Positions 3,101 through 63,001 of a stretch of DNA of 64,000 bases are shown in pieces. This DNA comes from Octopus vulgaris (Eukaryota). A program made the translations under genes and the position numbers. The stretch is from the NCBI GenBank assembly GCA_951406725.2, contig OX597814.1:175150001-175214000 (forward strand), read 5' to 3'. The notes beneath the pieces are model-generated. The model did not search any database. It had not been told where the DNA came from and was given only the letters and a program-made list of their open reading frames with translations. Numbering within the stretch: the stretch's first letter is position 1; every line of letters starts with the position of its first letter.

Positions 3101-4283
3101 AGTTGATCTAAATTTTCCAAATCAATTTTTTTATTAAATAACGTAAAACCAGTTAGAATATCCAAAGCACTTCAAAAGCTCAATATGTTATAGAAATTAT
3201 GTAAAGCATAAAGAAAATCTTGTTTATTATAAACTTCACTTTAATTCTTTATATCCTCTATAGAAAACTCATATCTAAACATGCGAACTAAGAATTGGAG
3301 CAGTGAGGGTTAAAAGAAAAAGACACTTAAATGCCTATTGGCATTTTCTGTATTATAGATTAAAATTAGTTGCTGCTGCTGTTGTTGTTGATAGCCTAAG
3401 TTAGCTGTGTTTAAGACATACAGCATAGAGGTGGCTGATCTAATGTGGTAATAGTGTTGAATTTTGTCTGGTCAGGGTTTTAACTATAGCCATCCTGTCT
3501 TTTTGGTGAGCATGTTGTCCTTAGCTTTGAGGATTTAAATTATATAGTACTCATTTGAAAGTCTAGGAAAATTGGCTGGTACACTGTGTAATTACATATA
3601 GATATTTTTTCATTGTAATTCTTTAACATAGCATAAAGGATAGCCTCTGGCAAATCAAGAACAATTTTCAGTTGTTGTTCTCAGTACAACAACTGAAAGA
3701 TAGTTACATACATACATATATAATAATTATATACATATATAATAAGATAGTTATATACATATATAATTATTTTATACACATGCACACGTATACTACTATT
3801 ACTGTTACTACTGCTAACTAATAACTAAGTGTAAAAGGGGGACTAAGGCTAATGGTGAAAATATATCTTTTATCTAATTCATCTGAATTATTTAAGAAAG
3901 AAAAATTAAAATAGACTTCTAATGTATATATACATAAGGTATGAAATGTTTTGAAATCCTTTTACAATTTGAGAAGAAATAATTAACTGCCAAGACAATA
4001 GATTTTTAGCTTCAACTTTTTAATTTTTGTCTCAAATATATTTTATTCCTAAACACTAAAAATGTTAATTCAGTAAGTTGTTATTTCATTTTATTTAACC
4101 TTTAATATAAATGCTAAATATTTTGAATTGTTACATTTACTTTGTTGATATTGTGTTTTGTACATAGATAACTTGTAATTTTCTTAGTTATAAAGATTTT
4201 CTCAGTAATAAGTCTAGATAAATGAAAATTGTTTCTCAAAATAAAAATAAAAAACGCCTTCCAATTTTTACTATTATTTTTAG

Positions 4284-4623
4284 GCTGAGCAGTAGTGGTG
4301 ACCAGGTTTTTATCTCAGCAGAAACTACTACTTCATCTGGAATAGGGACACCTGCACCATGTGTTGGATTACCATCATATTTATCTTTGTACCAGCAAAG
4401 TCAGAGCAATGCTTTTGTATGGTGTGGTCATTCGCTGATTGATTTACATATAGGACCCCAGCACTCACAAACTGTTACCCTTACTGCATGCTTTTCCAAG
4501 CCTGGAGTCTATAATATTAATCAGCTCTCAGTATTTGTCACCTACACAACTGATTCCTCAGAGATGATCCTGCAGAAACAGAGTGCTCCCAGTCTTGTTG
4601 TTATAAGTGATATTTCTTCATGA
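4284..4623 (+). CDS. TRAPPC8: TRAPPC8 terminal coding exon
   Basis: Acceptor ttttttAG at 4282-4283, phase compatible (AG|G = Arg). Reads ...FVWCGHSLIDLHIGPQHSQTVTLTACFSKPGVYNINQLSVF...APSLVVISDISS*, matching the TRAPPC8 C-terminus pattern (FTWLG...LKACF..GVYNL...PALIIIS). Confidence 0.9.
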
Positions 4624-11039: not shown

Positions 11040-11570
11040 TGAAAGAAATGGCTCTCTGTGACAGCAGAGATAAGATCTGGGCTCTTTTGTTAAGTGATCA
11101 TGTTGCCTGTTTCAGAATTTGGAATTATTCAGTTAAGCATAATTCACAGTCCTTGCTCTCTAAATCCATTATATTGCAGGCAATTCCATAATTTTTTGGT
11201 ATATTGTGCTAAAGAAGTACAATTCACTCATTCATCTTCGATGAGTGTAAATGATGGTTGTATCTGATCTTAAAGTGGCTTGCAATAAGTCCTGGGTGTT
11301 ATTTTTGCTATATATACTGCTTCTCATAGAGGCAAGATTTTTCAAGTGGACAATTTTGGAGTTTTCTGTAATTAAAAGCTGGCTGTTGGGGTGGGATTGG
11401 CTTTGTGTGTCTGGGTAGTCCTACTGTCCAGACAGAAGGTTGCTTTCATTTATTGGGGTTGAAAAGTTTTTAATATTTGCATGTATTGTTGGTAAATGAA
11501 TTAATCAAGATAAGACATTCCTATCTATGCTGGTGTAGGGAAGTATCCAGTCATATAGGAATTTTTTTTT
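11040..11570 (-). pseudogene. Penelope-like element fossil (linker plus GIY-YIG endonuclease)
   Basis: Minus-strand fragments KLFNPNK, NYRKLQNCPLEKSCLYE, FKIRYNHH, SKDCELCLTE and LNKRAQI match the PLE (Neptune-type) order CNCR..CPL..CL / FK.RYNNH / C.LCL.E / LNKRSE. Confidence 0.75.
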
Positions 11571-11599
11571 AATTCAAGGTACTCTCAACAAATATCCCT

Positions 11600-11945
11600 A
11601 CACTAGAACCCTGAACTAGATAAAGATGGGAGTTTATCAATGTCCAACATGAACAGCTATACCAAAGAAAAGAACTGGTCTGAATAGTTAAGGAATACAG
11701 TTAGAGCATCAGTATTAAAACCAACCTTAGAATAGTTAGTTTTTAAACATGACACTAAATCTGTTTATCCAGGATAAAATAATTTTGGATACACTATAGC
11801 TTTAAAAAATTCAAGATAATCATTATTGGAAGAATTTATTAATGTGCAACTATCACAAACTCTTCAACACTAATAATGTAAAAGTAAGATAGTGTTGTCA
11901 GGGCAGCATTGCTTTCCAGATTTCATACCACAATCTAAGATGCGC
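11600..11945 (+). pseudogene. Second Penelope-like fragment, opposite orientation
   Basis: 11851-11939 reads YHKLFNTNNVKVR*CCQGSIAFQISYHNL, resembling the PLE linker LHKIFNRNTVKVSYSCM.N...ISSHN. The left boundary is approximate. Confidence 0.6.
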
Positions 11946-13681: not shown

Positions 13682-13712
<31 letters not shown>

Positions 13713-13975
13713 GCATATGTATATATATATGTATATATGTGTGTATGCATATATATGTATGTATGTATATATATATATATATGTATGTATGTATATATAT
13801 ATATATATGTGTGTATGCATATATATGTATGTATGTGTATATATATATATGTGTATATATATATATGTATGTGTATGTATATATGTATGTGTATATATGT
13901 ATGTGTATATATATATGTATGTGTATATATATATGTATATGTATGTGTATATATATATGTATGTGTATATATGTA
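13682..13975. repeat. (TA/TG)n compound microsatellite
   Basis: Directly visible. Confidence 0.95.
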
Positions 13976-14274
13976 TAATAATAATATTAGGAAATAAATC
14001 CAAACTTACAGGGAAAAATTAGATTTAGGATTAAATCCAATTTTATAGTATAAATATATTATATTAAATTAGAAATAAAACCACTATTAGGCAAATCAAA
14101 CAGTGAAAAACATAAGCCAATACATGAAATTAATTTTAAAATATAAAAGTTAAAAATTAAAAAATTATTTAAATAATTTAAACTTATAAATTTTAAATAT
14201 ATATGTATGTATTTTTTTTTTTTATATATAAATATCAAAAGTATTAAAAGTTTAATAAAAGATAAAGAGTAAAA

Positions 14275-14367
14275 CACTACGATCATTTCATGGCCGTACC
14301 AATTCGAATAACAATAATTTAAATTCAATTAATAATTCGAGTTATGGTTACAGTCAATCTTCAGGTT
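14275..14367 (-). ncRNA. Type I hammerhead ribozyme motif (slightly degenerate)
   Basis: Minus strand: aac-CUGAAGA-[u ugacuguaacc..ucgaau..auucga..gguacggcca u: long stem II]-GAAA-ugaucg-UA-gug. Stem III is a near-palindrome (acgaucgu with one CpG-type change). Confidence 0.65.
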
Positions 14368-14447
14368 AATTGAAATATTTTTAAAATAATCAGAAATATT
14401 TAAACAATACTTTTAAGATATAAATAATATAATAATTTTATTTATAT

Positions 14448-14580
14448 TAAACTCTATTATCAAACTAGAAACTTAAAACTTAACAATTATGATTGTATCA
14501 AAATCGATTATAATGTTAAATCGATTTTGATATAATCATAATTGTTAAGTTTTAAGTTTCTAGTTTGATAATAGAGTTTA
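14448..14580. repeat. Near-perfect palindrome, 62-bp arms with 9-nt spacer
   Basis: 14448-14509 is the reverse complement of 14519-14580 with one mismatch. Confidence 0.95.
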
Positions 14581-14683
14581 TTATATATATGTATGTGTAT
14601 ATGTATATATGTATGTGTATATGTATATATGTATGTGTATATGTATATATGTATGTATATATGTATGTGTATATGTATGTGTG

Positions 14684-14716
<33 letters not shown>

Positions 14717-14998
14717 GTATGTATATGTATATATATATGTATGTATATATATATATATATGTATGTATATGTATGTATATATATATATATATGTATGTAT
14801 ATGTATGTATATATATATATGTATATGTATGTATATGTATATATATATATATATATGTATGTATATGTATGTATATGTATATATATATGTATGTATATGT
14901 ATATATATATATATATGTATGTATATGTATGTATATATATATATATATGTATGTATATGTATGTATGTATATATATATTTATGTATATGTATGTATAT

Positions 14999-15029
<31 letters not shown>

Positions 15030-15062
15030 TACATATATGTGTGTATGTATATATATATATAT
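14581..15062. repeat. (TA/TATG)n microsatellite
   Basis: Directly visible. Confidence 0.95.
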
Positions 15063-15175
15063 AGTTATATAAATCAACTAGAATGAAAACCCCACTAGAA
15101 TGGGAGAAAGTGCTAATACATGATCTAAGTTATATGATATATAAAAAATGTAATATATATGATATATAAAAAATG

Positions 15176-17385
15176 AAAACAAATTGAGAAAGAGATCCTC
15201 AAACAAAACTGGCCTGAATGTCTCTTCTCGCCAGACATCGACATGAAACTTCAACAATTCATGTCTGTAATGCAAGCCATATGCTACAAATGTGTCCCAG
15301 AGAGAAAGGCCACTGTAGGAGAGAGGAAAATTCTAATGAGACGGTGTACAAAAGTTTCAAATCGCCTAAACAAACAAATTGAAAGAAGTGAAAAGTCCCG
15401 TCTGAAAATAAAACTGTTAGAAATTGAAAAATGTCTGCAACTCTCCCATGAAAAAGAAAGAGCAGACAAAGAAGCCTGGGCTATAGACAACATAAAATCT
15501 AACCCCAGAGCTTTCTACAGGTATGCCAAAGAAACAGCTACGGTGCACTGTAGGATAGGGCCACTCCTTGAAAAGGATGGCACACTCACAGGAAATCCAA
15601 TGAGGGTAAGTGAAATACTAAATGAGCAATTCAAGAGTATTTTCACTCCACCCCTAGGGCATTTTCAAGTCAGCAATCCAACTGACTTCTTTACCACAGC
15701 AGATATAAAATCAGAGGCAGCGATGATTGATTACATTAATATAAAGGAAGATGATGTAATAAAGGCTATTGATGAAATGAAAACAAACTCAGCTACTGGC
15801 CCCGATGGATTCCCAGCAATCCTTCTAAAAGTATGTAAGAGAATCCTAGCAAGACCACTGCAGTTCCTCTTTCAGAGCTTCCTTGCAAGTGGCAAACTCC
15901 CAAGAGCAGAGGCCAAGAACTACAGACCTCACACATGAGCAAGGTCATGGAACGAATAGTCAGAAGGAAACTAATCACCTTCCTTCAAGAAAATTACTTG
16001 CTGCCTGACACCCAACATGGTTTCTGACCAGGAAGAAGCTGCTTAACTCAGCTCCTACAACACTATGACTGGGTGCTGAAATGACTGCTCAACCACTCAA
16101 ATGTGGAAGTTATATATCTCGACTTTGCAAAGGCCTTTGATAAAGTCGATCATGGAATGATATGTCACAAACTGCGTGATCTTGGCATAGTTGGAAAATT
16201 GGGAGAATGGCTTCATGACTTTCTGAAGGATGGAAGTCAGGTGGTAGTAGCCAATGGGGCCACTTCCATTAACACGCAAATAGTGAGCGGTGTTCCGCAA
16301 GGCACTGTTTTGGGACCACTACTGTTCATAATGGCCTCTCAGACATGCCCTCAGCCACGCAGAGAGCCACGATCACAAGTTATGCAGATGATGCAAAAGT
16401 TTCACCGGCAATACAGAACTCTGAAGACACTATGCACCTGCAATGTGAGCTGAACAAAATATACAAGTGGGCTGAAAAGAATAGCATGCAGTTCAATGCT
16501 GAAAAGTTTCAAGTTTTATGCTATCAGCATGCAAAACTAAATGCAATACCCAATGAATACACTGGACCTGGAGGGATTGCAATCCCAGAGGCACAGTCAG
16601 TGCGAGACCTGGGTATTTACATGAGTGATGATGCACCCTTTCATGTGCATGTTGCTAAATTGGCAATGAAATGTAGGCAGCTGACCGGATGGATTCTTAG
16701 AACCTTTAGAACAAGAGACCAGGAAACCATGATGGTCCTCTGGAGGACACTTGTCCTAAGCCACTTTGACTATTGCTCTCAGCTCTGGTCACCATCCAGT
16801 GTCAAATTAATCACTGAACTTGAGGCGATCCAACGAAGCTACATGAAGAAGATAACCTCTGTGCAGCATATAAGCTATTGGGAAAGACTCAAGAGATTGA
16901 AACTCTATTCCTTAGAGCGTAGGCAAGAAAGATATGCCATAATATACATCTGGAAGATCCTAGAAGGACTTGTCCCAAACTTTGACATCGAGAGTTACAC
17001 AAATGCCAGAACTGGGCGCCTCTGCATAGTGCCAAGGACTCCAAATTTGCCATCAAGATGTAGGACAAGATACTGTGATAGCCTGGGCTTCCGAGGCCCA
17101 GAGCTCTTCAATATCCTCCCGAAGAACCTAAGAGACCTGCATGGGGTGGATGCAGATGTCTTTAAAATAAAACTGGATCTCTTCTTGTCAGGTGTCTCAG
17201 ATGAACCAACTTCACGGCAGGAGGTGCAGATGAGGGCAGCTGCATCAAACTCTCTCATGCACCAAATGGCAATTGCTAAAAAGCATTTGTGAAGTAAAAT
17301 CATGTTGCAACACCAAATGGCGGTGCCCCAGCATGGCCACAGCTTGTGAACTGAAACTAGATAAAAATAAAATAAAATAAAAAAT
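15176..17385 (+). mobile_element. 5'-truncated CR1-group non-LTR retrotransposon (RT ORF with frameshifts and stops)
   Basis: RT motifs ATGPDGFP, YLDFAKAFDKVDH, GVPQGTVLGPLLF, YADD, DLGI and YSLERRQERY across ORFs 15243-15938, 16103-16453 and 16345-17292; (TAAAA)n tail at 17362-17385. Confidence 0.93.
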
Positions 17386-50247: not shown

Positions 50248-51499
50248 TTAAGTTGTTCTGAAAATAATGGCCAATTTCAGAAACAATTTTATTCTGGAAA
50301 AATTAACACTAGAAATGTTTTGATTACTCAAAGTATGAGCCGTGAACATCTATGCATCTCTGCCATCAATCAATGAGATTATTTATGTCTTGTTGATAAA
50401 AATTTATTGGCTTTGATGCTAAGAAATCTTTGAAAGCTGATTTCACCTCTGGTTTGGACCTGAAAGTTTTATCACTTAAAAACTTGTTTGAATGCTTAAA
50501 AAAATGGTAGTCATTGGGTGAAAGATCAGGAGAATATGGAGGATGTGTCTTGTATCCCAAGTCTGTGAGTTTCTGCAACGTCATTCTGGCAACATGTGAC
50601 TTTGCATTTTCGTGGAGCAGAATTGGGCCATACTGATTCACCATTGCATTTTTTTAAAGTGAGCATGCATTTCAGCAGATTGCAATAAAACTCTGTTGTA
50701 ATGCTCTGATTGGCTTCCAGAAAATTGTAATGGACAACACCAATTGCAGACCACCAGACAGTTACCATAATCTTTTGCTGATGCAACTTTGGCTTTGGGA
50801 AATGCTTAGGGGGACTCATTACAGTCAACCCATTGAAATGATTGTTTGTGGTTATCATAAAGGATCCACTTTTCATCGCAAGTGACTATTCGGTCAAGAA
50901 TAGGATCATTGGTGTTTCGGAGAGAGAGCATCAAGCACATTTCAAAACGCGGAACTTTATTTTCATTGAGCTCATGTGGTACCCATTTATCAAGCTTTTT
51001 CACCTTACCAATCTTCTGCAGATTGCGTGAGACCGTTGCAATACCGATACCAAGTGCCTGAGACATTTCTCTGACACTTTGATGTGGGTTTGGTTCAACA
51101 ATTGCTTTCAATTGTTCATTGTCAAGACTGCATGACCATCCTATATCTTCTTCATCTTCAAGGCTCTCATCACAACTTTGGAATTTCTGAAACCACCTTT
51201 ATACTGTGCGATCACTTGTGGATCCCTCTTCCTATGCTCTGGCAGCAGTTTTGGAGGCATTGTGCACAAGCTTGAACTCATGCAAGAAAATAAGCGAAGG
51301 TCCTTATTTGCCATGTTCATAATTAAGGGCGCTTATGCTTCAAGTATGTTTTCTGTTTGAAATAAGTAGAAAATTGTTGAAGAGCATACATCAATTATTA
51401 AGTATGTTGAAATTCACCTAAAATATAATTAAAATACTATGATAAAATTGTGTTTCAAACACAATACTTACAGCAGCCATTATTTTCAGAACAATCTAA
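50248..51499 (-). mobile_element. Full-length mariner (DD34D) with frameshifted transposase
   Basis: TA-flanked TIRs ttaagttgttctgaaaataatggc / gccattattttcagaacaatctaa; motifs KWVPHEL, VTCDEKW, LLHENAKSH and PPYSPDLSPNDY. Confidence 0.95.
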
Positions 51500-62547: not shown

Positions 62548-63001
62548 TCTCTTTTACTTGTTTCAGTCACTTGACCGTGACCATCCTGGAGCACCACCTT
62601 TAGTCGAGCAAATCGACCCCAGGACTTATTCCTTGTAAGCCTAGTACTTATTCTATCAGTCTCTTTTGCCAGACTGCTAAATTACGGGGATGTAAACACA
62701 CCAGCATCGGTTGTCAAGCAATGTTGGGGGGATACAGATACTCAAACATATACACACACGTACATATATATACATGCATAAATATATACGACGGGCTTCT
62801 TTCAGTTTCCGTCTACCAAATACACTCACAAGGCTTTGGTCGGCTCGAGGCTATAGTAGAAGACACTTGCCCAAGATGCTGTGCACTAGGACTTGAAACA
62901 AGACTTGTTTCAAGTCCTAGTGCACAGCATCTTGGGCAAGTGTCTTCTACTATAGCCTCGGGCCAACCAAAGCCTTGTGAGTGGATTTGGTAGACGGAAA
63001 C
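62548..63001. mobile_element. SINE A (minus) ending in a 98-bp-arm fold-back palindrome centred at 62903
   Basis: 62805-62902 is the reverse complement of 62904-63001 with 3 mismatches. Confidence 0.93.

Follow-up and report, generated by a model that had tools for sequence, protein, structure and literature searches.

A long-armed hammerhead motif in an Octopus vulgaris TA microsatellite as the putative 3′ end of a Penelope-like retrotransposon

A 64-kb stretch of the Octopus vulgaris genome (the window) contains a short AT-rich unit that lies in a TA microsatellite and combines a hammerhead motif with a long palindrome, which raises the question of what kind of mobile element left it there. 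An earlier note on this DNA had proposed a self-cleaving, non-autonomous retroelement, a candidate retrozyme or Penelope family. We consider, with moderate confidence, that an autonomous Penelope-like retrotransposon, in all likelihood a member of the Hydra clade, left the unit as a passive and fairly young copy of its 3′ end, the pseudo-LTR region. The unit measures 605 bp (13976-14580), has a G+C content of 17% and holds no credible open reading frame (ORF) in six-frame translation, in agreement with the roughly 600-bp AT-rich non-coding unit described in the note. It is bordered by microsatellites at 13682-13977 and 14582-15071, the presumed target. The note had described these as (TA)n tracts; the TA context stands, but both tracts are mixed (TA)n/(TATG)n rather than pure, and insertion in a TA repeat is seen at this one locus.

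The minus strand carries a minimal type I hammerhead motif at 14276-14366, whose layout we matched by eye to File S2 of PMC8557442. CUGANGA, GAAA and UH are ordered around three helices in its core (14364-14278), as in the minimal form found in Penelope-like elements (PLEs). A stem I of 2 bp is followed by CUGAAGA (14364-14358), U.U, stem II, GAAA (14289-14286) and an 8-nt, palindrome-like stem III, with 68 nt separating the first two boxes and with UGAUCG, UA (14279-14278) and GUG downstream of GAAA. All of these boxes, as well as the 2-bp stem I, had been claimed previously and were located, and the layout bears out the assignment to Penelope-type minimal hammerheads. Cleavage is predicted 3′ of A14278. 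Stem III is palindromic and could pair between two molecules over eight base pairs, two of them wobbles (-6.4 kcal/mol). The stem III change that had been thought to impair the ribozyme is present and leaves a U-G wobble, but it need not inactivate the motif since the dimer helix keeps all eight pairs.

Several features are common to the unit and the minimal hammerheads of metazoan PLEs as described in PMC4209133, including an extra, unpaired nucleotide after CUGANGA, an enlarged and stable helix II, a short helix I, a palindromic helix III and a mostly single, dispersed occurrence. Helix I of the PLE minimal form has 4-5 bp, against 2 bp in this copy, and the best longer helix among the flanking 36 + 33 nt reaches only -3.0 kcal/mol; a 2-bp helix I is also given for D. 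virilis (PMC4209133). The published helix II has 6-8 bp and a G10.1-C11.1 pair, whereas that of the unit starts with U-A followed by G-C (PMC4209133). Canonical type I hammerheads, by comparison, are described with a helix I of about 6 bp, a helix II of about 4 bp and a loop contact (PMC4209133, PMC7229834).

Stem II (14290-14357, minus strand) is the most unusual part of the motif, and at 68 nt is close to the approximately 65 nt noted earlier. Its predicted structure is a stack of three helices, interrupted by internal loops and a single A.C mismatch (-13.9 kcal/mol), a fold that beats shuffled sequences with z -2.9 (2/200 as good) and, in a second run, z -2.75 (11/1000). The 124-nt region as a whole is no better folded than its shuffles (z -0.74), and Rfam hammerhead models, a check suggested in the note, gave no match to the unit at E values up to 10. 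Together with the 2-bp stem I, these two results speak for a chance motif in an AT-rich repeat of some other kind, devoid of ribozyme function. A descriptor that required the core, closure of stem II, a pair in stem III and a 2-bp stem I nonetheless matched only the unit's motif in the window and found nothing in 3000 dinucleotide-shuffled versions of the unit or in 60 shuffled windows, a significance that is overstated as the descriptor was composed after the motif had been seen. The motif also has Hydra-type details beyond what the descriptor demands, a palindromic stem III and a CpG observed/expected ratio of 1.96 against 0.26 in the window (from four CpG only), and we regard a chance origin as very improbable. 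Rfam microRNA models matched below their gathering scores and reflect microsatellite and palindrome noise.

Little or no cleavage is to be expected from this lone copy. Speaking against the favoured reading, the active fold lies 9-15 kcal/mol above the favoured one (10.4-14.7 as a monomer, 9.1 with stem III free), and none of 111 single transitions tried lowers this cost by more than 1.5 kcal/mol. The hammerhead of the parent element would probably also cleave weakly, either as a dimer via the palindromic stem III or aided by protein. Weak cleavage, restricted to dimers, has been reported for minimal hammerheads in vitro (PMC4209133), and in an anole element cleavage needed protein and was dispensable for insertion in vitro (PMC11167929). 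By analogy, the mode of action would resemble that of the pseudo-LTR ribozyme of a PLE.

Sequence details of the motif point to the Hydra clade of PLEs, which is defined by an ORF encoding a reverse transcriptase (RT) plus, at the C terminus, an endonuclease of the GIY-YIG type, with a CxCX5C linker, upstream of the ribozyme. By our hand counts in PMC8557442, 14 of 25 Hydra-clade hammerheads have U.U where stem II begins, and in 10 of the 25 it is combined with the UG/CA closing stem II seen in the unit (U-A as first pair, then G-C). Stem I of Hydra-1_Crog opens with AC/GU, as does that of the unit, and families such as Hydra-1_Crog, Penelope-1 to -8_HM and Hydra-1_Obim have a hammerhead near the 3′ end, a short palindromic stem III and an AT-rich 3′ region, all as in the unit (PMC8557442). 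Furthermore, (TA)n is listed as the target of 26 of 27 Hydra families in the same source, in keeping with the TA tract around the unit. This agreement is good without being diagnostic: the U.U is not Hydra-specific, having been reported in an axolotl retrozyme too (PMC7229834).

Other traits set the unit apart from the described Hydra families. The 68 nt between its core boxes compare with at most 26 nt in the 25 families listed in PMC8557442, which upholds the earlier claim of an unusually long stem II, and some 300 nt follow its cleavage site, whereas by hand arithmetic on that source the corresponding stretch is roughly 30-155 nt long in 23 of 24 families. This copy further differs from them in its 2-bp stem I and in having no ORF. 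The ribozyme sequence of Hydra-1_Obim, the sole published octopus Hydra family, also differs from that of the unit (PMC8557442). Since this copy lacks the ORF that defines the clade, we keep Hydra membership at likely. An origin from Naiad elements was rejected, as the 3′ ends of three octopus Naiad consensus sequences in PMC8557442 differ from the unit, and three short motifs compared with the supplement of that paper, in which line breaks can hide matches, gave only one Hydra match and one chance match. In PLE-X1 of spike mosses the core boxes are about 50 nt apart in two elements that are marked as deviant from the canonical structure (PMC8557442 File S2). Unlike the unit, PLE-X1 belongs to an unrelated lineage that is plant-borne, endonuclease-less, targeted to 28S rDNA and richer in G+C (PMC8557442 File S2).

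The non-LTR retrozymes of animals resemble the unit in being non-coding and low in G+C, in carrying a type I hammerhead and in their proposed dependence on Penelope-like elements, but they are tandem and have a canonical ribozyme (PMC7229834; bioRxiv 10.64898/2026.07.22.740005). The two features of this class that we tested gave the opposite result: the unit is single in the window rather than one of at least two consecutive, tandem ribozyme-bearing units, and its hammerhead layout is minimal, not canonical. The retrozyme label given to the unit earlier is thus not sustained in its strict sense, namely a tandem-repeat monomer that carries a canonical hammerhead and is processed to circular RNA. 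The size of the unit fits imperfectly, since it exceeds the invertebrate monomers of about 170-400 nt given in PMC7229834, although solo monomers and families as long as 972 bp have been reported (bioRxiv 10.64898/2026.07.22.740005). With a single ribozyme in 64 kb, we find this explanation scarcely credible despite the hammerhead type, the base composition and the lack of coding capacity.

A 5′-truncated copy of an autonomous element would account for the missing ORF more simply than a non-autonomous family does. Strong 5′ truncation has been described for Penelope-like insertions (PMC8557442), and most minimal hammerheads are single and probably derive from truncated elements (PMC4209133). 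Upstream of the ribozyme, the AT-rich, ORF-less segment 14367-14509 (minus strand) occupies the position next to the ribozyme that it has in Hydra consensus sequences and would represent a 3′ untranslated region whose 5′ side was cut short. Downstream of the ribozyme, the AT-rich segment 13976-14275 (minus strand) contains an internal TA/A tract near 14195-14230 and is either the long 3′ end of the element or a second repeat remnant. The latter would suit a composite locus, in which one microsatellite has collected a Penelope-like tail of just the ribozyme and some 50 nt more, the remnant of an unrelated repeat (13976-14195) and perhaps a small fold-back element of separate origin (14449-14579). 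The cleavage site is followed at 45-80 nt by the internal tract, where Hydra elements usually end (PMC8557442), and a reading of the palindrome with TA at either side is feasible. The pieces are, however, uniformly AT-rich, a context in which TA flanks are expected by chance, and we judge a composite origin to be quite improbable.

Three minor features of the unit are recorded here. A degenerate and older inverted repeat (14119-14213, 72% over 97 nt) lies within the 3′ segment and may be a chance product of its AT-richness. Four of the unit's six CpG are concentrated in the ribozyme region (14271-14370). A consensus splice-donor hexamer (14009-14004, minus strand) is situated about 28 nt before the 3′ end of the unit and may likewise be due to chance; an intron near the pseudo-LTR is retained by some Penelope-like elements.

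The end of the unit opposite to its 3′ segment is a fold-back palindrome (14448-14580), identified by self-comparison, with 62-bp arms at 14448-14509 and 14519-14580, a 9-nt loop and a single mismatch (14495/14533), confirming the arm length and mismatch count reported earlier. With the minus strand as sense, it forms the 5′ end of the unit: the second arm mirrors the 5′-most 62 nt and then enters the TA tract. The note had set this structure beside the inverted truncated ends of PLE insertions. In the classical case, the inverted copy is 5′-truncated and includes the 3′ end of the element (PMC8557442); the palindrome is not of that classical kind, because it is the 5′ end that is mirrored, and the 3′ end of the element is missing from it. 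An assembly fold-back artefact is possible but disfavoured by the mismatch between the arms. Both inner ends of the arms are self-complementary 8-mers, which suits a fold-back during synthesis.

Based on these features, we propose the following course of insertion for the favoured truncated Hydra-type element. The autonomous element would have been transcribed, and its GIY-YIG endonuclease would have nicked the TA microsatellite. Reverse transcription would then have started at the 3′ end (the 13976 side), passed the ribozyme and halted about 150 nt upstream of it. At this point the new strand could have folded back at the self-complementary 8-mer and served as its own template for some 55-60 nt before being joined to the TA tract on the opposite side.

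Self-comparison of the window revealed only two long palindromes. The second (62805-63001) is almost loopless, has 98-bp arms with three mismatches and is derived from a common dispersed repeat. None of the eight further loci of this repeat in the window is palindromic, and a fold-back at one of nine loci favours, without proving, a junction accident over a family trait for the palindrome of the unit as well.

The unit is present once in the window, and none of its 575 31-mers recurs elsewhere in it, so that matches to these words are not matches to microsatellite. Among 54 sampled words of the unit, 26-59% are contained in public runs X1-X14 (six studies, four organisms), a list that shows only runs containing the words and of which one run may be the source of the window itself. 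No RNA run is among those listed, and rows presumed to be RNA, with shares of 0.17-0.20, are given no weight. Three contig sets of 43-69 million letters contain 26-33% of the sampled words. As such sets correspond to about 2% of the O. vulgaris genome, which is near 2.8 Gb (PMC13282606), many copies can be inferred and the unit is probably a repeat. The word shares equal a divergence of 2-4% if the differences are evenly spread, which together with the arms differing at 1 of 62 positions makes the copy look young.

Such a repeat might instead belong to a family of dispersed, non-autonomous units, each about 600 bp long, that descends from a Hydra-type pseudo-LTR and is copied whole, with or without the palindrome, by the proteins of an autonomous partner. 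Consistent with such a family are the lack of any ORF remnant, the long 3′ segment and the probable repeat status in four organisms, and both monomeric retrozyme derivatives and descent from pseudo-LTRs have been described (bioRxiv 10.64898/2026.07.22.740005). Yet truncation by itself explains the missing ORF, and the other repeat of the window is folded back at a single locus. We therefore consider a non-autonomous family unlikely, and continue to favour the truncated end of an autonomous element, with the long stem II probably being a trait of its family.

Short-stem Hydra-type hammerhead motifs were not found in the 64-kb window. In pattern scans, the exact long-stem motif had no match in metagenome contigs and the long-stem pattern none in viral contigs. 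A looser long-stem pattern gave three matches, all within long ORFs and lacking both the matching fold and a palindromic stem III, and these were dismissed as chance. When the region spanning the ribozyme was translated conceptually, the product had no relatives.

Hammerheads are common in Penelope-like tails, and O. vulgaris is rich in such families, with 190 making up 6.83% of the genome (PMC13282606); the locus itself is ordinary in this respect. What may be new is the 68-nt stem II. The open-licence literature contained no report of the unit's family or of a long-armed cephalopod hammerhead, although the element may already sit unremarked in the O. vulgaris consensus library (PMC13282606) or in Repbase. 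A core-only hammerhead search in PMC8557442 used spacers of 7-17 nt between the core boxes. Given such short spacers and the failure of Rfam models to match the unit, a long-armed class could be undercounted. It is conceivable, though rather unlikely, that the unit represents an abundant family of cephalopods that was active recently, whether non-autonomous or of a Hydra type not yet described, and in which the 68-nt stem II of the hammerhead is conserved and has its own function, such as binding the reverse transcriptase or marking its start site. If so, some Penelope-like families listed without a hammerhead, or with half a core, may carry a long-armed one missed by the usual descriptors. 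Selection on the fold could be tested by covariation in any long-stem II family of high copy number.

A second Penelope-like trace lies 2.4-2.9 kb from the unit. The stretch 11050-11600 (minus strand) contains four motifs in Hydra order and in one frame, and is likely the Hydra-like remnant of a linker and GIY-YIG endonuclease, judging from a by-eye match to the Hydra linker/endonuclease alignment. The motif order occurred in 0 of 100 shuffles with a pattern composed afterwards, and the remnant is heavily decayed, full of stops and frameshifts. Protein searches with this fossil gave no confirmation and no Pfam family, and a match to a cadherin-repeat protein was spurious. The nearby Penelope-like fossil mentioned in the note is thus present as a decayed remnant labelled by eye, but the suggestion that its family mobilised the unit finds no backing at the DNA level, where the two share no likeness. 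A further candidate, at 15177-17292 (plus strand), was rejected as Penelope-like since it is a LINE-type RT remnant with frameshifts (Pfam RVT_1); it begins directly after the right-hand microsatellite. Elsewhere in the window, broken frames at 50366-51198 (minus strand) had no Pfam match at E 0.01, and we take them to resemble a mariner-type transposase. The second half of the frame at 4222-4623 (plus strand) may be a host gene's final coding exon, with a likeness to a TRAPP complex subunit.
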